Shown here piece after piece: positions 72-29,005 of a DNA stretch of 64,000 bases (within the stretch, counting starts at the first letter, position 1; the number at the start of each line of letters is the position of its first letter). Under the pieces are notes generated by a model. That model was not told the origin of the DNA. It saw only the letters and a program-made list of their open reading frames with translations, and did not search any database. The position numbers were made by a program, and so were the translations under genes. The stretch is from a virus. The DNA lies in the IMG/VR virus record IMGVR_UViG_3300001201_000002, positions 1 through 64,000 of that record, one strand, 5' to 3'.

Positions 72-147
72 TGGTCAGGGCGGTAGGACTCGAACCTACG
101 ATCTCCGCATTCCAAATGCGGCACTTTACCAGCTAAGCTACGCCCTG
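72..147 (-). tRNA. tRNA-Pro (anticodon UGG), CCA encoded
   Basis: Reverse complement folds as a full cloverleaf: acceptor CAGGGCG/CGCCCTG, D stem GCTT/AAGT, anticodon stem CCGCA/TGCGG with loop TTTGGAA, T arm GTAGG-TTCGAGT-CCTAC, discriminator A plus CCA. Confidence 0.9.
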
Positions 148-7968: not shown

Positions 7969-8005
7969 CCTCCTTGCACATCCCAGTGCAGGGAGGTAAT
8001 TTTTT
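7969..8005 (+). terminator. rho-independent terminator after RNAP2
   Basis: 11-bp stem CCTCCTTGCAC/GTGCAGGGAGG, loop ATCCCA, then TAATTTTTT. Confidence 0.8.
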
Positions 8006-8281: not shown

Positions 8282-8330
8282 ACCTTCTGTTTTGGTTCCG
8301 CTATTCGCGGAGAGACATAGGGAAATTATC

Positions 8331-8585
8331 ATGACAATTGCTTCAACCACAGCCACAGAACTCGAAGAAATTCTACGTGCATACATCGACGAGCAGTCTA
8401 TGCCCATCACCGATGGTATCGACTACGATCTTGGGGACAATCTCCACGACAAATTGGGTCTGGATCAGCTTGATATTCTTGAAATGCTCATGCACCTAGA
8501 AGAACTCTTTACAATCGAAATGCCTGACGATGATTACGTGTCCCTCCAAGACATGATCACTGCAGCTGAGGAACAAATTGGATGA
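8331..8585 (+). CDS. acyl carrier protein homologue lacking the phosphopantetheine Ser (Ser to Gln)
   Basis: KLGLDQLDILEMLMHLEELFTIEMPDDDYVSLQDMI aligns with the ACP core [35 protein letters not shown]. The Ser codon position is CAG at 8466-8468. Confidence 0.75.
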   Translation: MTIASTTATELEEILRAYIDEQSMPITDGIDYDLGDNLHDKLGLDQLDILEMLMHLEELFTIEMPDDDYVSLQDMITAAEEQIG

Positions 8586-11942: not shown

Positions 11943-12014
11943 CTTCACCACAACCATCGACAATTAAGGGCTTCTCATTGATTTGGGGAGCCTTTTCATT
12001 TCAAGGAGCACACT

Positions 12015-14788: not shown

Positions 14789-15133
14789 ATGGCTCGAAAT
14801 ACCATCCCTACTATCCAGCTGAAGCGTGGGAACACCTTCCGTCTGGACATCTCAGCGACTGATCCAAATGCAGAAAATTTGCCAGTCGATCTCACTGACT
14901 ACGTCATCACCGCCCAATTGCGTTACGGCGACGAATTAGCGGCCGATCTTCAGGTTATCCTGACAGACGTTACCGCTGGTGACTTCTCCCTCTACCTCAA
15001 TGCTTCCTTGGTTCGAGAACTCAAGGTTCGCAAGTATGATGGAGACATCCTGTTTCACACACCGGATGGGACGTTTATCTCTTCCGAATCATTCATTCTC
15101 GATCTGGAAAAAGAGGTGACACGTTTTGCTTAA
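14789..15133 (+). CDS. hypothetical beta-rich protein (114 aa), coupled to tailspike
   Basis: Its own RBS (AAAGG). Overlaps the TTG start of the next gene by 8 nt. Confidence 0.6.
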   Translation: MARNTIPTIQLKRGNTFRLDISATDPNAENLPVDLTDYVITAQLRYGDELAADLQVILTDVTAGDFSLYLNASLVRELKVRKYDGDILFHTPDGTFISSESFILDLEKEVTRFA

Positions 15134-18110
15134 TCTCAACGCAAATTCCAATCCAATCATTTCATTGGCTGTATCACAGCCTGATACGGATGTAGCCTTC
15201 ACCCTCGGTGTAGGCATCAATTCATCGGCTCTCCACTACACTGACCTCGGCACAGGCGGAGCATCATCCCCTCTTCGCAAGGCGACCAACGGTGTCAACC
15301 TGAAAAACCTGGCTGTCCTTGAGACAGAAGCACACGCTCTTGGCGACCTGGCTATGGGTTTTGCAGAGAACATCACCGGTGGATCCGGCCTCGACGTCTA
15401 CTGGGTTTCCCACACTGTTCAGAACGGTGAGCTGCGTGATACGCGCCAGGCTAACGCTCAGGACAATTCAGACTTCGTCTACGGCTCATTCCGCTGGGCG
15501 GTTCAGATGTGCCGTGAGAACAATGGCGGCATCATCCTGTTCGAACCAAAAGGCTTCCACCAACTGTCGATCACGTGGCAAGAAGAGATCCCAAGCAACA
15601 CAACCATCTGGGCACCCAACAAGAACGTGGTCTTCGTGAAGCCTACCCAGGCTACAGCGATCAAACCAGCTGGTTCAAATATCATCATCCGCGGCATCTA
15701 TTTCAAAGACGTCAAAGACCTGCGTTCACACTCCTCTCGTGATGGTATCTATGTTGACCCGAACATCACCAACCTGATGTGGATCGACAGCTGTACCTTC
15801 GAGCAAATTGCTGACGGGTGTATCGACATCAACTCCCTGTCTGAGTTCACTTCCCGCTCTGACATCACGATCTCGAACTGTATCTTCCGTGGTCACGACA
15901 AAACCATGCTGATTGGCTCACTGGCCTGTTACCAGGACACTGAGGACGGTACGGTCTTGCCAACATACTGTGCAACACCTCTTGACGCTCCAGCCCTGCT
16001 CCACGTGACGCTCTACAACAACTACTTTGACCACACCTCTCAGCGTAACGCGAAGGTCCTTGGTCAGACGTTTGTTGACTTCTGCAACAACTTTGTTGGA
16101 TTGGCTCCATTCAGCCGGCCGGATGCGTCTGTAGCCTCAGTCTACGGAACTCACGCTCACATGGGCGCACGTGTCATCTCACGATACAATCACTATGCGT
16201 CATACGCTGGTGACGGCTATCTGGCTGTCGACGGTATTGCTGACGGTGTCTTCTCACCACGGGTGGGCAGTGACCTGGCTGACGCTTCACCGGGTGCCAT
16301 CGTTGAAGAAGGTAACCGTTACGACTCTGGTATCACCTCCACACCAAACCCATTGGAGGCAATCGTCGCTCCAACTTATACGACTCCTTTGGAAATCGTA
16401 CCGGTCAACTCTTTGGAAGAGGTTCTCTCTTCACGTGTTGGTGGATGGAACCACTTCCTACCTTACAACTATGTCGTTCAATCCGAGGCAGACAGCACAG
16501 GCATTTACCCAGATGGTGTGACTCTCCGCGGTGACCTGTACGACCGGACCCAGTTCTTCTCAGTCTTCCAGCCCCTGGATGTGATCCAGCCTATCGGCTC
16601 ACGTCTATCTCTGGAATTGGGAACCAATGTGGTAGCGAACTCAGTTGGTCAGATCGGTGTTGGTAACGACATCGACATCAACATTGCAGCCTACCATGCA
16701 AGTGCTATGGGCCAAGAAATCTACGTTGGAGAACTTGGAGACATGAGCTTCAATGCCGGTCGCGGTATATGGAACAACGTGTCCCAGTCTGTATCTGTTG
16801 GCTCATTCCCTACCATCAACGACGAGAAAGAAGTCCATTATTGGTACGAGGACATGTGGGAAGAGGGTGACCCAGTCCTCACCTATGATAAAGACGCGCC
16901 AGACATCCTCAACAAAGGATATGTCTTCCAGGTTGGTTCAGGTGGATCTACCGGGTCTCGCCGGAATGCTATCGGTGTCAAGAAAGACAGCGGTACAACA
17001 GAGATGCAGTCGATTGCTTACCCACGTGATGGGTCAAAAGACATCGTAGACGGTATTGTACGGCTAGAGGCTGTGTACCACACTCTTCGTACTGAGGGTT
17101 GGGATGATCCAGTCACTCCAGTCTATGAGGATGACATCGAAACCATTCTATACGGCCGTTACCGTGACGTTTATGTAGATGAAGTGTATGTTGAAACTGT
17201 CTATGATGACTTCATGACAGACGGTCTGTTTGTAATGATCACTCCTGCGTCATCAGCAGGTGTTATCACTATCAAGCATGACACTGAAGATGGTAACATC
17301 CGGCTGGCTGGTGAGCAAGACATCATCCTTGACGGATCTAAAGCACACATGTTGCAGTTGTTCTACCAAGCATCTCGTGGATGCTGGACTAATTTCATTG
17401 GAACTGGTACTTCAACGGCTCAATCTGGAACAACACCTCTTGGTGATGTGGACATCACAAGCGTATCGTCCTCTGCTGAATTGCAGAGCATTATTGATGA
17501 TCCAAACTATCACAACAATGACTACAACGACACATTGGTCAAGTGGGCTGCTCAAGAGCCTATGAATAACCTGGTTGCTGACTTTGGTCTCACAAGTCAC
17601 TACGATCTTAATGGTTACAACGCAATTAATGACCTTCAGGACAACCATAATTGGTCTATCACCGATGGAGGAGTAGACAATAACGCCTTAAGTGATACTT
17701 TGACTGTTAACCCAAACTTCGACACTGATATCAATAACTGGAATCCATACAATGGCGGGAATTCAAGTGCTGTATGGGATAACGGTAAGATTGAGGTAAC
17801 TTCAGGCAGCAACGGTCTTGGTTATGAGCAAGGTATCAGCTTGATTGCAGGTAGGGTCTATGTGCTTAGTGCTGAGGTACAAGCAACTGCCACTGGTCCA
17901 TCAATTCTTGGCCTTGTAAACTCGTCTCGGTCTGCGTTTATTAAAACCAGTGAGAACATTAATGTTAGTGATGGCGTGACTAACGTATCGTTTATCTATG
18001 AAAACCCAACCTCCACGAATTACTACCTGTACTTACGGGTCGGTTCTGGATCCGGTCGGGTTGGTGTCTACGACAATATTTATGTGAAGGAGCTTCAGTC
18101 CTTATCTTAA
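15126..18110 (+). CDS. tailspike-like polysaccharide lyase (pectate lyase PL1-type beta-helix plus C-terminal carbohydrate-binding domain)
   Basis: Blocks NIIIRGIYF, DGIYV, MWIDSCTF, DGCIDI, ITISNCIFRGHDKTMLIGS and VTLYNNYFDHTSQRNAKV..FCNNF follow the PL1 pectate lyase order. The C-terminus NPNFDTDINNWNPYNGG...YDNIYVKEL is CBM4/9-like. TTG start after GAGGTGA. Confidence 0.75.
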   Translation: MLNLNANSNPIISLAVSQPDTDVAFTLGVGINSSALHYTDLGTGGASSPLRKATNGVNLKNLAVLETEAHALGDLAMGFAENITGGSGLDVYWVSHTVQNGELRDTRQANAQDNSDFVYGSFRWAVQMCRENNGGIILFEPKGFHQLSITWQEEIPSNTTIWAPNKNVVFVKPTQATAIKPAGSNIIIRGIYFKDVKDLRSHSSRDGIYVDPNITNLMWIDSCTFEQIADGCIDINSLSEFTSRSDITISNCIFRGHDKTMLIGSLACYQDTEDGTVLPTYCATPLDAPALLHVTLYNNYFDHTSQRNAKVLGQTFVDFCNNFVGLAPFSRPDASVASVYGTHAHMGARVISRYNHYASYAGDGYLAVDGIADGVFSPRVGSDLADASPGAIVEEGNRYDSGITSTPNPLEAIVAPTYTTPLEIVPVNSLEEVLSSRVGGWNHFLPYNYVVQSEADSTGIYPDGVTLRGDLYDRTQFFSVFQPLDVIQPIGSRLSLELGTNVVANSVGQIGVGNDIDINIAAYHASAMGQEIYVGELGDMSFNAGRGIWNNVSQSVSVGSFPTINDEKEVHYWYEDMWEEGDPVLTYDKDAPDILNKGYVFQVGSGGSTGSRRNAIGVKKDSGTTEMQSIAYPRDGSKDIVDGIVRLEAVYHTLRTEGWDDPVTPVYEDDIETILYGRYRDVYVDEVYVETVYDDFMTDGLFVMITPASSAGVITIKHDTEDGNIRLAGEQDIILDGSKAHMLQLFYQASRGCWTNFIGTGTSTAQSGTTPLGDVDITSVSSSAELQSIIDDPNYHNNDYNDTLVKWAAQEPMNNLVADFGLTSHYDLNGYNAINDLQDNHNWSITDGGVDNNALSDTLTVNPNFDTDINNWNPYNGGNSSAVWDNGKIEVTSGSNGLGYEQGISLIAGRVYVLSAEVQATATGPSILGLVNSSRSAFIKTSENINVSDGVTNVSFIYENPTSTNYYLYLRVGSGSGRVGVYDNIYVKELQSLS

Positions 18111-19692: not shown

Positions 19693-19700
19693 CACACAGA

Positions 19701-19738
19701 GGGCGCGGTTCACCCCGCGCCTTTCTCTTTGGTTTTTT
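19701..19738 (+). terminator. rho-independent terminator
   Basis: GGCGCGG-TTCACC-CCGCGCC followed by TTTCTCTTTGGTTTTTT. Confidence 0.8.
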
Positions 19739-19776: not shown

Positions 19777-20001
19777 ATGGGCCTATTTACAGGACAAAAG
19801 ACAGTCGCGGGCGTGATGAGCGCTTTCACAACAGCAATCGCTGATTTGACGACAGTCGAAGAAAACAACACTTCAATCGCACAGAATCTTGATGCTGAGC
19901 GTGAACGTTTGGCAGCCGAATCTGCAGCTGCAACAAACGAAGCACGCAACGCTGCAGCCATCCGTGCGAAGTTGGAAGCAATCGTCAACCCTGACGCCTA
20001 A
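19777..20001 (+). CDS. hypothetical coiled-coil protein (74 aa)
   Basis: RBS GAGGAG. Lies between two terminators. Confidence 0.6.
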   Translation: MGLFTGQKTVAGVMSAFTTAIADLTTVEENNTSIAQNLDAERERLAAESAAATNEARNAAAIRAKLEAIVNPDA

Positions 20002-20012
20002 ATCCATCACCC

Positions 20013-20048
20013 AGAGCTCGTAGGCTAACCCCTGCGAGCTCTTTTTAT
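20013..20048 (+). terminator. rho-independent terminator
   Basis: 12-bp stem AGAGCTCGTAGG/CCTGCGAGCTCT followed by TTTTATT. Confidence 0.75.
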
Positions 20049-22800: not shown

Positions 22801-24048
22801 ATGGCTAAAACGCGCTTCGTCTATCGCGAACAGGTCCTTCACCAGGGCGTCGTTCGTGAAGTAACATCCATCAAATTCCACAATGCAGATCCATGGGTCT
22901 CTTACGAGCTGACCGGTGTCGCTGATTTTGTGGGTCAAGAAGAACTCACAAAGATCCAACCACAGGAAGTCGACGGTGCTGCTTATGTCAAGGAAGCACT
23001 CATGTTTGCTGACTTGCTTGTCATCACAGGTGACTCAACCTCTGACAACAGCTACAGCGAATCAATCGAATACTTCACCCGCATGTACGGTAAAGTTGGG
23101 ATCGACATCTTTGACAACGCTGCATCTGGTCTGGAAGCTGCTGACTGGGTCGATAACACAGGCAACGCTACTGTGAACGAAGCCATTGCGGCTATTCCCG
23201 GCACCGGTGAAGGTACTGTCTGGCAGTTCTGCTTGGGCATCAACGACGTTGGTTCCGGTGGTGGTATGTTGACTCCTCAGCAACTGGTTGACATCTTCAC
23301 ACCTGGTATCGACGCTGTACTTGCAGCTAAGCCTGATGTGGTCCTGTACTTTGTGCAGCCAACTGCTCTTGCAGACTCAACACGGAATGATGCTCTGAAT
23401 GGGGCTTATGAAATCCTTGAAGATCTCTATGGTGCTTACGTGGTTCCGCTGTATCAGCCAATGCGTGACATCTATGACGCTGCGACTGACAACATCTTCT
23501 ACCAGGACAGCACACACCCGAACAACATCGGGACGATCCGTCAGATCAACATCATCCTGAACCACACTATCCCAGGTGCTTTCGTTTCAGATATGACTCT
23601 TGATCAAGAGCATTACACCGACATCACAGAAATCCTTGTCGATGAAATGGGTCCTTCGGACATCATCGCCGGACGTTACTGGAACTCTTCAGGCAGCCGC
23701 AGCAATAACGCATCCTGGGCCAGCTTTGATGCTCTGCCGGTGAAACTTGGACAGCGTGTTCGGGTCAACCACGGTGGTAACCGTTCGGATCTTCGACTGG
23801 TTTCATCTCCTTTTGATAACGATGGTGGCACGTTTGTCCGTACAATCACAGGCACTGGTGATCCTATTGTCTTTGACATCGCAGATGCAGGGGATGCTGT
23901 TGGTATCAACGTCGATTCGTCTGGGGCATATACAGCCCCTGGCGATGCTTATGCTCGTGTTTACGATCTCGTAAAAGAGAAAGCAGATTCCGATTTGACT
24001 CAAGACGAAATCAATATCGGTTTGACCATGCGTCTTATCGAGGCGTAA
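22801..24048 (+). CDS. SGNH/GDSL-family esterase with extra N- and C-terminal domains
   Basis: Block I VITGDSTSD, block III CLGINDV and block V QDSTHPN. Confidence 0.75.
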   Translation: MAKTRFVYREQVLHQGVVREVTSIKFHNADPWVSYELTGVADFVGQEELTKIQPQEVDGAAYVKEALMFADLLVITGDSTSDNSYSESIEYFTRMYGKVGIDIFDNAASGLEAADWVDNTGNATVNEAIAAIPGTGEGTVWQFCLGINDVGSGGGMLTPQQLVDIFTPGIDAVLAAKPDVVLYFVQPTALADSTRNDALNGAYEILEDLYGAYVVPLYQPMRDIYDAATDNIFYQDSTHPNNIGTIRQINIILNHTIPGAFVSDMTLDQEHYTDITEILVDEMGPSDIIAGRYWNSSGSRSNNASWASFDALPVKLGQRVRVNHGGNRSDLRLVSSPFDNDGGTFVRTITGTGDPIVFDIADAGDAVGINVDSSGAYTAPGDAYARVYDLVKEKADSDLTQDEINIGLTMRLIEA

Positions 24049-24066
24049 ACTAATCCCAACCAATCA

Positions 24067-24100
24067 AAAGGGTCTGCAGGAAACTGTGGGCCCTTTCTTT
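24067..24100 (+). terminator. hairpin terminator/attenuator immediately upstream of the luxI-like gene
   Basis: 8-bp stem AAAGGGTC/GGGCCCTTT (one G:U) followed by CTTTA. The GGAG RBS and ATG of the next gene follow within 12 nt. Confidence 0.5.
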
Positions 24101-24111
24101 ATGGAGCAATC

Positions 24112-24621
24112 ATGTCTTACAAAATAGTGCCGTTCGGCTACCAAGGCCCACTTGTTGATGAAATGTTTTGGGCCCGTAAGCGCCTGTTCGTAGATCGTCT
24201 GAAGTGGGACCTCACTGTTACCGCAGAAGGCTACGAAGTTGACAATTATGACAACTACCGCTGTGAATACCTGATCCTCGGAGAGCCACACGAGGCCTCC
24301 ATGCGCCTGATGCGAATCTCGGATCCTTGCATGACAGTGGAAGCATTCCCTGGACTGTTCGATCGGTCCATGGCTAAAGATCCAGACAACGCAATTGAAG
24401 TCACACGCTTCTGCGTCGACCCTTGGACACCCGGTAAAGCTACTGAACTGTTCCAGGCTGGTCGTGACTGGCTCTACACCACCGAGTTCACGTCATTCGT
24501 GGCCGTCTACACTCCAGCGATGCTGCGGGTCTACAAGCGGGCCGGCTGGATGCCGAACACAATCAACTCAGCTGACAGCCCAGAGGGTAAAATACTCGTA
24601 GGACAGTGGAGTAAGCCATGA
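24112..24621 (+). CDS. luxI: LuxI-family acyl-homoserine-lactone (autoinducer) synthase homologue
   Basis: Family blocks appear in order: RKRLFVDRLKW (R..F.....W), GYEVDNYD (ExDxxD), MRLMRISDPCM (RL..P), IEVTRFCVD (E.[ST]RF.V) and MLRVYKRAGW. Confidence 0.85.
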   Translation: MSYKIVPFGYQGPLVDEMFWARKRLFVDRLKWDLTVTAEGYEVDNYDNYRCEYLILGEPHEASMRLMRISDPCMTVEAFPGLFDRSMAKDPDNAIEVTRFCVDPWTPGKATELFQAGRDWLYTTEFTSFVAVYTPAMLRVYKRAGWMPNTINSADSPEGKILVGQWSKP

Positions 24622-24992
24622 TCGAATTTTCCAAAATCAAAGAGACTTGGCAGTTTGATTTAAGTCAACGTGATGGTGGAATGATTGCTATCATGTGCAA
24701 CGAAGAGGATGATCCTAATTTCCACGCTGTCTACGAGTTACCTATTGATGTCATACAAGAACCAATGACATGGATGGGGATCTACCCTACCTACCTCATT
24801 GATGTTGACGTTGAGGCGTGTGCCGAAAAAGAAATTGATCTTGTGGATCTTCGTGAGTCCATCGAGATTTGGATAGAACAAAACGTCCGAATAGCTTACC
24901 GATATAATCCTTTGGATCGTCGACCAGACTACAATGAGGACACGTACATCCGACAGCGTCACGCTGTTGAATCTTTGGAGGATACGTTGTGA
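24618..24992 (+). CDS. hypothetical acidic protein (124 aa)
   Basis: ATGA overlap with the luxI-like gene. Confidence 0.6.
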   Translation: MIEFSKIKETWQFDLSQRDGGMIAIMCNEEDDPNFHAVYELPIDVIQEPMTWMGIYPTYLIDVDVEACAEKEIDLVDLRESIEIWIEQNVRIAYRYNPLDRRPDYNEDTYIRQRHAVESLEDTL

Positions 24993-25489
24993 TTTACACC
25001 GGTATTGGTTCACGTACCACGCCAGCACCGACTCTCAGAGCCATGATGGCACTCGGTCGGTTCATGGCCAAAGAAGGACACGTTCTACGCTCAGGAGCTG
25101 CCCCAGGCGCTGATACAGCGTTTGAGACGGGTGCTCGTGCAGAGAAAGGTGAGTGCGAGATCTACTTGCCTTACAAGCTTTTTCGTCAGCACCCATCCCT
25201 TCTCTTTGGCGATACAGTTGAAGATCGGAACTTCACTTCTAAGTTCCATCCGAACTGGGCCAACGTAGGATCCCGTGGCCGGGATTATCTGACTCGAAAC
25301 ATGTATCAGATCCTCGGCCGAGATCGACAAACACCAACCCGTTTCATGGTCTGCTGGACAGATGACGGAAAAGTCAAAGGCGGCACAGCCATTGGCATCC
25401 GTATTTGCCAGGAGTACAAAATCCCATTCTTCAATCTTGGTTCCATGAGCTTAGATGAAGCCAACGAGAAAATACAGGATCTGCTATGA
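24989..25489 (+). CDS. SLOG/DprA(Smf)-like Rossmann-fold protein
   Basis: YTGIGSRTTP ... VLRSGAAPGADTAFETGA matches the DprA/SLOG GxGSR...SGxAxGxD pattern. GTG start after GGAGG with a GTGA overlap. Confidence 0.6.
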   Translation: MIYTGIGSRTTPAPTLRAMMALGRFMAKEGHVLRSGAAPGADTAFETGARAEKGECEIYLPYKLFRQHPSLLFGDTVEDRNFTSKFHPNWANVGSRGRDYLTRNMYQILGRDRQTPTRFMVCWTDDGKVKGGTAIGIRICQEYKIPFFNLGSMSLDEANEKIQDLL

Positions 25490-26010
25490 TTAAAGAATTC
25501 ATTATCCGCAAAGCCAAGGCCTTAACACAAAGCCGGGCCCCAGACTTCGCTATCGGCCCAGCCGAAGACCCCTACATGCTTCGTTGGTGGTGGCTGCCGA
25601 GGAATCGCTTCTTCAACGTCTACGTCCATATCATGCGGCATGACGATGACGATCGGGCCCTGCATGACCACCCTTGGCCAAGCCTCAGCCTCTGCGCTCA
25701 AGGTATTCTATTGGAGCATTACAAAGACTCCGATGGTGATGCCCGCAAACGTCTGATCTACGAAGGTGATTGGATTTGGCGCCCAGCATCATTCGCTCAC
25801 CGTTTGGCCGTCTTCTCTGAAGACGAACTGCCAATGACAATCTTCATCACCGGTCCTCGGATCCGTGAGTGGGGCTTCCATTGCCCAAAGGGTTGGCGTC
25901 ATTGGATGGACTTCGTCTCTTCAGACGACAAAGGTGTCATCGGCCGTGGCTGCGGTGAGATGACCGGTCCAAGCAAAGCACCGAAGAGACGTCGAGGTTT
26001 CTTCAAGTAA
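25486..26010 (+). CDS. hypothetical protein with cupin-like HxH..E..H motif
   Basis: LHDHPWPSLSLCAQGILLEHY ... PASFAHRL. ATGA overlap. Basic tail KAPKRRRGFFK. Confidence 0.5.
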   Translation: MIKEFIIRKAKALTQSRAPDFAIGPAEDPYMLRWWWLPRNRFFNVYVHIMRHDDDDRALHDHPWPSLSLCAQGILLEHYKDSDGDARKRLIYEGDWIWRPASFAHRLAVFSEDELPMTIFITGPRIREWGFHCPKGWRHWMDFVSSDDKGVIGRGCGEMTGPSKAPKRRRGFFK

Positions 26011-26032
26011 TTCGAGATGGTCCACACTCGAT

Positions 26033-26073
26033 AAAGAAAGCCCGTGTCACACCAGATGCGGGCTTTCTTTTTT
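26033..26073 (+). terminator. strong rho-independent terminator
   Basis: 12-bp stem AAAGAAAGCCCG/CGGGCTTTCTTT running into a T-run. Confidence 0.85.
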
Positions 26074-26124
26074 CACCAGGGGTGGTATGACAGCCGTCCC
26101 TAACCTCAAAATCAAGGAAAAACT

Positions 26125-28666: not shown

Positions 28667-29005
28667 ATGACCCACCACATTGACAAACTGGTTGGGGAAC
28701 GCATTAAATCAGTTCGACTGACGCAAGGCCTTTCCCAAGAGGAGCTGGCCTCTAAGATCGGCACCTCATTTCAACAACTACAGAAGTACGAATCGGGCAA
28801 GAACCGGATCAGTGCATCTCGTCTTTTCGATCTGGCTAAAGCCATGGGCATGCCTGTTAGCTACTTCTTTGCTCAGAATTCAAAGACAACCCCACTCCTG
28901 GACAAATCGACTGCCACTCTGGTAGGTCGGTACTCCGAACTTCCACAAGAACGACAGCAGCTCGTTTTCAAACTCATCAAGGAACTCTCCAATGGCAGCA
29001 CTTAA
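28667..29005 (+). CDS. XRE-family HTH transcriptional regulator
   Basis: VGERIKSVRLTQGLSQEELASKIGTSFQQLQKYESGKNRISASRLFDLAKAMG is a canonical HTH_3 domain. Confidence 0.85.
   Translation: MTHHIDKLVGERIKSVRLTQGLSQEELASKIGTSFQQLQKYESGKNRISASRLFDLAKAMGMPVSYFFAQNSKTTPLLDKSTATLVGRYSELPQERQQLVFKLIKELSNGST

Follow-up and report, generated by a model that had tools for sequence, protein, structure and literature searches.

Four overlapping genes ahead of the ribonucleotide reductase gene of an N4-like phage: probably a co-expressed mosaic with a solo LuxI-type synthase

A block of four co-oriented genes, bounded by hairpins, occupies positions 24067-26073 of a 64,000-nucleotide stretch of viral DNA (IMG/VR record IMGVR_UViG_3300001201_000002, positions 1 to 64,000; the whole stretch analysed is referred to as the window). 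The window phage is N4-like (Schitoviridae) and related to roseophages. The first open reading frame (ORF) of the block, ORF1, is a homologue of LuxI-type acyl-homoserine lactone (AHL) synthases; ORF2 is lineage-restricted, ORF3 is DprA-like, and ORF4 is a cupin. A sequence-only reading of the window had proposed that the four genes form one functional unit. This proposal fails when co-occurrence is checked across phage relatives, in which ORF1 never accompanies ORF2-4. The best explanation, with a probability of about 0.7, is that the block is a mosaic of independent genes at the end of a read-through transcription unit, co-expressed, with ORF1 serving as a solo AHL synthase and no four-protein system. 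The elements of the block are as follows.

24067-24103, + strand: intrinsic-terminator-like hairpin (24067-24096; 13-bp stem, GAAA loop, then TTTCTTT)
24112-24621, + strand: ORF1, 169 amino acids, compact LuxI-type AHL synthase homologue, ribosome-binding site (RBS) GGAG at 24103-24106
24618-24992, + strand: ORF2, 124 amino acids, lineage-restricted, always directly upstream of ORF3 in the nearest relatives
24989-25489, + strand: ORF3, 166 amino acids, GTG start, DprA-like Rossmann/SLOG fold (PHROG 768, 5.4e-50)
25486-26010, + strand: ORF4, 174 amino acids, three-His cupin of a large phage/prophage family (PHROG 4786, 1.2e-44)
26033-26073, + strand: strong intrinsic terminator (hairpin 26033-26070 plus T-run), before the ribonucleotide reductase (RNR) gene

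Distribution of the Block Genes

The nearest relatives of the window phage were recovered via ORF2 and ORF4 homologues. Loci L011-L015 share with the window an exonuclease (66% identity), a ligase (59%), p229 (62%), and RNR (56%), and their gene order runs from p229 through a 69-amino-acid gene, ORF2 (68%), ORF3 (54%), and two unrelated small genes to RNR; this slot contains no ORF1, no SGNH/GDSL-like gene, and no ORF4. ORF4 stands directly before RNR without ORF1-3 in L017, L024, and L029, while L028 and L033 carry ORF3, ORF4, and RNR in succession without ORF1 or ORF2. The isolates V13 and DSS3phi2 keep an ORF3 homologue in the same position, followed by a small hypothetical gene and RNR. 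ORF3 is thus a backbone gene of N4-like roseophages ahead of class II RNR, and the slot before RNR is a hotspot of gene flux.

Conserved adjacency is limited to ORF2-ORF3, plus ORF3-ORF4 in two relatives. In the best 80 of 493 IMG/VR loci with an ORF4 homologue, inspected within 3 kb on either side, ORF1 and ORF2 were found in 0/80 and ORF3 in 2/80. ORF1 homologues lie next to ORF2-4 in none of the relatives examined. The families also differ widely in their spread, with homologues in 1337 phage records for ORF3, 66 for ORF4, and 3 for ORF1.

These distributions bear on the idea of a single pathway, in which the LuxI-type enzyme would make a signal, the cupin would oxidise or modify it or a by-product derived from a thiol or from S-adenosylmethionine (SAM), the SLOG protein would handle a nucleotide-derived product, and the upstream hairpin would attenuate expression. 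The conserved ORF2-ORF3 adjacency and the ORF3-ORF4 adjacency in L028 and L033 speak for such a pathway, as do the three consecutive 4-nucleotide start-stop overlaps and the flanking hairpins. The absence of ORF1 beside ORF2-4 elsewhere, the counts at the ORF4 loci, and the unequal spread of the families speak against it, and the layout argument loses its force when the rest of the window is considered.

Overlaps, Hairpins, and Terminators

The four ORFs lie at exactly the coordinates given in the sequence-only reading, and its account of the layout is confirmed. The junctions are ATGA at 24618-24621, GTGA at 24989-24992, and ATGA at 25486-25489, and a Shine-Dalgarno-like GGAG, GGAGG, or AGGA precedes every start. 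The upstream hairpin at 24067-24096 directly follows the SGNH/GDSL-like stop codon and leaves 15 nucleotides to the ORF1 ATG; its folding energy is -22 kcal/mol (z = -3.1). For the downstream hairpin the value is -35.3 kcal/mol (z = -5.6), and 0/200 shuffles were equally stable. A consensus terminator scan listed neither hairpin; a separate scan for a hairpin plus T-run recovered both.

The same features recur throughout the window. Overlaps of 4 nucleotides make up about 10/56 same-strand window junctions, a count that rests on a crude gene-call proxy. The hairpin plus T-run scan found six elements on the + strand within the + strand gene block, three of which lie 10-20 nucleotides 5' of an RBS (11970-11993 before ATG 12015, 20013-20042 before ATG 20063, and 24094 before 24112). 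Tight overlaps also stay in the pre-RNR slot of relatives that carry other genes there. Because 4-nucleotide overlaps and pre-RBS hairpins recur elsewhere in the window, this layout is a general packing style of the genome and no special mark of the block. The pre-RNR hairpin plus T-run is kept in L011, L015, and L017 irrespective of the preceding gene, and the downstream terminator is accordingly a backbone feature ahead of RNR. The recurrence of the hairpins suggests leaky terminator punctuation, or RNA-processing or stability sites, across the middle region. Other strong elements of this type lie on the + strand at 19700-19730 and 7970-7999, and a single small gene at about 19778-20001 has one of the recurring elements on either side.

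The upstream hairpin had been taken to mean that expression of the block needs read-through and that the hairpin may act as an attenuator. The first part is reasonable given the short distance to the ORF1 start. The second finds no counterpart in the Rfam scan, which returned no leader, attenuator, or riboswitch family match and only a tRNA and a sub-threshold Thr_leader on the terminator hairpin. A promoter candidate at 24022-24051 (TTGACC-18-TAAACT) was given no weight; the consensus scan returned 2 sites against 7.7 expected. With overlaps and terminator punctuation being genome-wide habits and no leader or riboswitch match in Rfam, the single-pathway idea is very improbable.

A separate observation concerns the segment CACCAGGGGTGGTAT at 26074-26088, directly after the pre-RNR terminator, which is identical in L017 (3690-3705). 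This identity contrasts with the coding sequences of the window and L017, which are just 50-65% identical at the protein level. CACCAGGGGTGGTAT may serve the RNR gene as a promoter or as a processing signal; within the window it does not recur above chance.

ORF1, a Compact LuxI-Type Synthase Homologue

ORF1 matches the Pfam family PF00765 (Autoind_synth) at E 3.2e-22, with 79.4 bits against a gathering score of 24, over profile positions 10-162 of 183. It also matches all solved AHL synthases in phmmer searches, including EsaI (4.6e-7), LasI, TofI, BjaI, and RpaI. In alignment, ORF1 residues R22/F26/W32/E42/D44/D47/R65/E96/T98/R99 correspond to EsaI R24/F28/W34/E43/D45/D48/R68/E97/S99/R100, with an inferred chain numbering offset of 20; T98 replaces the EsaI serine, and the other signature residues are unchanged. 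The earlier assignment of ORF1 as LuxI-like therefore holds. ORF1 is nonetheless a divergent member: a search of 1.84 billion representatives returned 554 matches at E <= 1e-3, of which a single one reached E <= 1e-30, and its nearest named cellular relative, the AHL synthase of Litoreibacter roseus, is 37% identical.

Cellular LuxI homologues run 25-55 residues past the ORF1 C-terminus. The basic helix that faces the acyl carrier protein (ACP) contains the motif PAMLRVYKRAGW, which is invariant across the phage clade, and the strands that follow this helix are still present in the ORF1 sequence. Because these strands are retained, ORF1 is predicted to have its GNAT core complete and to be missing just the variable tail.

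Two alternative roles for ORF1 were considered. The first regards it as a decayed remnant, or as another GNAT such as a FeeM-like N-acyl amino acid synthase, with no signalling role. Its short length, its scores far under the NCBIfam equivalog cut-offs, and weak secondary Pfam matches to Acetyltransf_5 and FeeM (E ~2e-3) are consistent with this reading, but the Autoind_synth match is 19 orders of magnitude better than that to FeeM, and all LuxI signature residues are retained. The long invariant motifs in homologues of 48-58% identity point to purifying selection, and the gene has its own RBS and an unbroken reading frame. A remnant or a different GNAT is consequently unlikely.

The second regards ORF1 as a SAM-consuming enzyme that would starve SAM-dependent defences such as type I restriction and BREX, as an analogue of the phage T3 SAM lyase. 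T3 SAM lyase also yields methylthioadenosine and homoserine lactone. All N-terminal SAM-binding residues of LuxI enzymes are kept in ORF1, the protein is minimal at 169 amino acids without a C-terminal tail, and it is carried by a virulent-type phage in which no LuxR was detected. However, conservation within the phage clade is highest from PAMLRVYKRAGW through VGQW, in the helix facing acyl-ACP and the core that follows, which argues for continued acyl-donor binding. To our knowledge, no LuxI enzyme acts as an acyl-independent SAM lyase. The SAM sink is judged as doubtful as the remnant.

A solo AHL synthase is the preferred reading of ORF1. No LuxR (Autoind_bind plus GerE) was found among the ~44 window ORFs scanned against Pfam. 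The only regulator near the block, an XRE-type helix-turn-helix (HTH) gene at 28667-29005, also occurs in relatives without LuxI, and no integrase was seen in the window phage.

An ACP-like gene of 84 amino acids lies elsewhere in the window (8292-8585, + strand; likely start ATG 8331). It scores 22.7 bits against the Pfam PP-binding cut-off of 20.8 and matches >100 ACPs in the PDB (best 7e-6). The phosphopantetheine serine of its DSL motif is a glutamine (LGLDQLD), so the protein cannot carry an acyl group, and the gene (8331-8585) was rejected as the acyl donor of ORF1. A role as an ACP mimic or decoy is possible, which is notable beside a phage-encoded enzyme of the acyl-ACP-using LuxI type. 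Searches of GenBank phages and IMG/VR found no relative.

Homologues of ORF1 in Phages and Prophages

ORF1 homologues occur in three GenBank phage records, none of them N4-like. An IMG/VR scan with the single ORF1 sequence gave no match, and an alignment-based scan gave one locus. The homologues of 48-58% identity, which keep the long invariant motifs, are all in phage or prophage contexts. L005, L006, L008-L010, and L023 have a lytic-type phage background with primase/helicase, thymidylate synthase, and dCMP deaminase genes; L007 carries its homologue at a prophage end beside an integrase, and L104, a contig of a Rhodobacteraceae metagenome-assembled genome, at a prophage end beside an M15 endolysin and a DNA methylase. 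The siphophage R26L encodes a homologue of 163 amino acids at 36-38% identity. These loci represent three unrelated phage or prophage backgrounds and share no further gene with the window. At L007 9812-10267, the 287-amino-acid database protein P0005 is likely a mis-called ORF: its LuxI similarity is confined to the first 89 residues, and a full-length LuxI-like coding region detected by tblastn lies upstream and overlaps the P0005 call.

Phage-borne LuxI genes have already been reported. Modules of xre-luxR-luxI are present in 53/93 Roseobacter prophages, for example in Phaeobacter inhibens, and make AHLs that steer lysogeny, favouring the lysogeny of self and rivals (PMC13345283). In the Dinoroseobacter siphophage R26L, gp44 has been noted as a hypothetical AHL synthase (PMC11981692). 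The words quorum, LuxI, autoinducer, and homoserine are all absent from a survey of N4-like viruses (PMC10654107). The window contributes a LuxI that is both solo and minimal, carried by an N4-like phage.

ORF2 and ORF3, the Conserved Pair

ORF2 has no match in Pfam, PHROG, NCBIfam, PADLOC, the PDB, or GenBank phages, and an IMG/VR scan with an ORF2 alignment also gave none. Just two homologue clusters, at 67-68% identity, were found among 5.8 billion proteins searched. An AlphaFold2 model built from 3 sequences reached a pLDDT of 52.8 and was unusable. The adjacency of ORF2 and ORF3 is kept in L011-L015. In DSS3phi2 and V13 the ORF2 position, directly upstream of the DprA-like gene, is occupied by orf45 (L002 4606-4995) and gp39 (L001 4493-4876), respectively, which encode proteins of 127-129 amino acids that are 76% identical to each other and share the motif FVFGSNKSGxHGAGAA. 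These genes were considered as relatives of ORF2 and rejected, with no detectable relationship.

ORF3 matches PHROG 768 over its full length, with residues 1-161 on profile positions 4-177 of 191. Of its homologues in 1337 phage records, 1320 cover >= 80% of the query, and the best matches are to N4-like roseophages at 43-50% identity. Weak matches to Pfam DprA and SLOG cluster4 fall on the GxGxR...SGxAxGxD segment, in keeping with the SLOG/DprA-like label that ORF3 had received. The protein scores under the DprA thresholds (12 bits versus 191 for TIGR00732; 19.3 versus 29.6 for PF02481), and 166 amino acids leave room for the Rossmann domain only, without the SAM or winged-helix flanks. Three ssDNA-binding (single-stranded DNA) arginines have been described in Helicobacter pylori DprA (PMC12961424). 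ORF3 aligns weakly along the Rossmann domain of that protein and has Arg at the three positions, with the offset inferred. A weak PADLOC match to the DprA-like antitoxin PsyrA/ShosA makes a role for ORF3 as an anti-ShosTA decoy conceivable.

ORF4, a Three-His Cupin

ORF4 has 1962 homologues, and residues H60, H62, and H105 are invariant in an alignment of 49 sequences, which bears out the cupin-like metal site (HxH...H) noted earlier. Its AlphaFold2 model (pLDDT 89) is an all-beta barrel. A Foldseek search with this model returned 462 PDB matches at E <= 1e-3, the top ones all cupins, placing ORF4 in the cupin superfamily. The fold matches include Bacillus subtilis cysteine dioxygenase (CDO) and ergothioneine dioxygenase, with TM-scores of 0.52-0.57, and these thiol dioxygenases are not set apart from quercetinase, HppE, and PGI. 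In profile searches of the PDB, CDO appears weakly, at E 0.05-0.7, and there is no match to Pfam CDO_I. ORF4 further contains a conserved Cys pair, C133/C156, and a W-rich N-terminus.

Homologues of ORF4 are present in 66 phage records and at 493 IMG/VR loci. In Labrenzia phage V1 and Caulobacter phage Cr30, the homologue lies among polymerase, methylase, SNF2, and dNTPase genes. Most likely, ORF4 is a three-His cupin that moves independently and that hundreds of unrelated phages carry in the company of replication and nucleotide genes.

Proposed Function of the Block

In the proposed mechanism, ORF1-4 would be transcribed from upstream and through the 24067-24096 hairpin, since just 15 nucleotides separate this hairpin from the ORF1 ATG, and a polymerase of phage or host origin would meet the hairpins as leaky punctuation. 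ORF3, possibly together with ORF2, would act on ssDNA or RecA in replication or recombination, a role that fits the neighbouring genes and the proposal of Iyer et al., who suggest an ssDNA-binding role for phage DprA-like proteins (PMC7824862). ORF2 would be a lineage-specific upstream partner of ORF3. ORF4 may be a metal-dependent oxygenase or isomerase tied to nucleotide and replication modules.

ORF1 would be an independently acquired moron encoding a minimal LuxI-type synthase. During infection it would probably condense host acyl-ACP, or acyl-CoA, with SAM to give an acyl-homoserine lactone and methylthioadenosine, and the host population, or resident prophages, could thereby receive a false quorum signal. 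Since no LuxR was found among the ORFs scanned, the phage would broadcast without listening. Because Roseobacter prophage AHLs promote lysogeny (PMC13345283), a forged signal could silence resident prophages or shift the group behaviour of the host.

It is a tentative proposal, and one that may well prove wrong, that a strictly virulent N4-like phage makes AHL through a receptor-less LuxI to manipulate resident prophages or neighbouring hosts, with the short LuxI proteins forming a phage-adapted, 'broadcast-only' clade. Short LuxI proteins of 163-190 amino acids occur on several marine phage backgrounds. If ORF1 is active, quorum-signal production by phages extends from temperate prophages to a virulent N4-like lineage without a lysogeny decision, and signal forgery aimed at hosts or rival prophages is implied.

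Several points weigh against a mosaic with an active solo synthase. ORF1 may have lost or changed its activity, because its C-terminus is shorter and it scores far under the NCBIfam TraI cut-offs (53-57 bits for the equivalogs NF052393 and NF010408, against cut-offs of 250-292). The LuxR domain scan took in only the ~44 window ORFs. ORF2-ORF3, and ORF3-ORF4 in two relatives, remain adjacent, and sub-modules may exist. Finally, a lack of co-occurrence still allows for an opportunistic interaction in the window phage alone.

The block also carries a more general lesson. Start-stop coupling and bracketing by terminators are no evidence of shared function in phage genomes, and the block is a clean example of this. 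The pair formed by ORF2 and the DprA-like ORF3 is its sole conserved unit.

Genomic Setting

The assignment of the window phage rests on several of its proteins. A minus-strand ORF of 3404 amino acids has the size of the N4 virion RNA polymerase, and a fragment of a T7-like RNA polymerase is also encoded. The major capsid protein shares 62-64% identity with its counterparts in N4-like roseophages (Schitoviridae, Rhodovirinae), and in comparison with the Ruegeria phages V13 and DSS3phi2, the class II RNR is 51% identical and the Dda-like helicase 58-60%. The block sits in the + strand DNA-metabolism (middle) region, in the order SbcD-like exonuclease, ligase, p229, SGNH-like gene, block, RNR, XRE-HTH, helicase. 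The gene directly 5' of ORF1, with the hairpin between the two, is the following.

22801-24048, + strand: SGNH/GDSL-like hydrolase, 415 amino acids (Pfam Lipase_GDSL_2 9.7e-6, under the gathering score)

Among phage proteins, this one matches only a pre-neck appendage protein from a Clostridium phage (27% identity). Like ORF1, the SGNH-like gene is missing from the same slot in relatives L011-L017, and the two genes may for this reason have arrived together.

Two further features were noted in the window. A protein of 994 amino acids with pectate-lyase and CBM_4_9 domains (15126-18110, + strand) is depolymerase-like and lies within the replication-gene block; in roseophages V13 and DSS3phi2, by contrast, large genes upstream of the DprA-like gene carry rIIA/rIIB-like annotations. 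A tRNA-Pro (TGG) gene is located at the left end of the window (72-147, - strand).

Comparison with Known Systems

Thiol dioxygenase-type cupins, namely cysteine dioxygenase and ergothioneine dioxygenase, have the barrel and the HxH...H ligands in common with ORF4. ORF4 differs from them in its low identity (13-18%, TM-scores of 0.5-0.57), in being equally near to quercetinase, HppE, and archaeal PGI, and in its extra conserved C133/C156 and W-rich N-terminus. ORF3 shares the GxGxR...SGxAxGxD motif and the Rossmann-domain alignment with DprA/Smf and the PHROG 768 phage proteins, whereas it lacks the SAM and winged-helix domains of DprA/Smf and falls far under the TIGR00732 cut-off.

The LuxI-family enzymes EsaI (1K4J), LasI (1RO5), and TofI (3P2F) share with ORF1 the GNAT-type core, the signature residues, and the ACP-facing basic helix. 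In contrast to this family, ORF1 has 169 amino acids and no C-terminal tail (Pfam profile positions 163-183), and unlike the cellular LuxI enzymes, it has no adjacent luxR and is carried by a virulent-type phage. The closest parallels are the Roseobacter prophage modules and R26L gp44, which are likewise LuxI-type genes on marine Rhodobacteraceae phages, the R26L protein also being short. Unlike the prophage xre-luxR-luxI modules and R26L, the carrier of ORF1 is an N4-like podovirus in which no integrase or LuxR was seen, and whereas the prophage genes belong to a lysogeny-control operon, ORF1 lies within an operon of replication genes.

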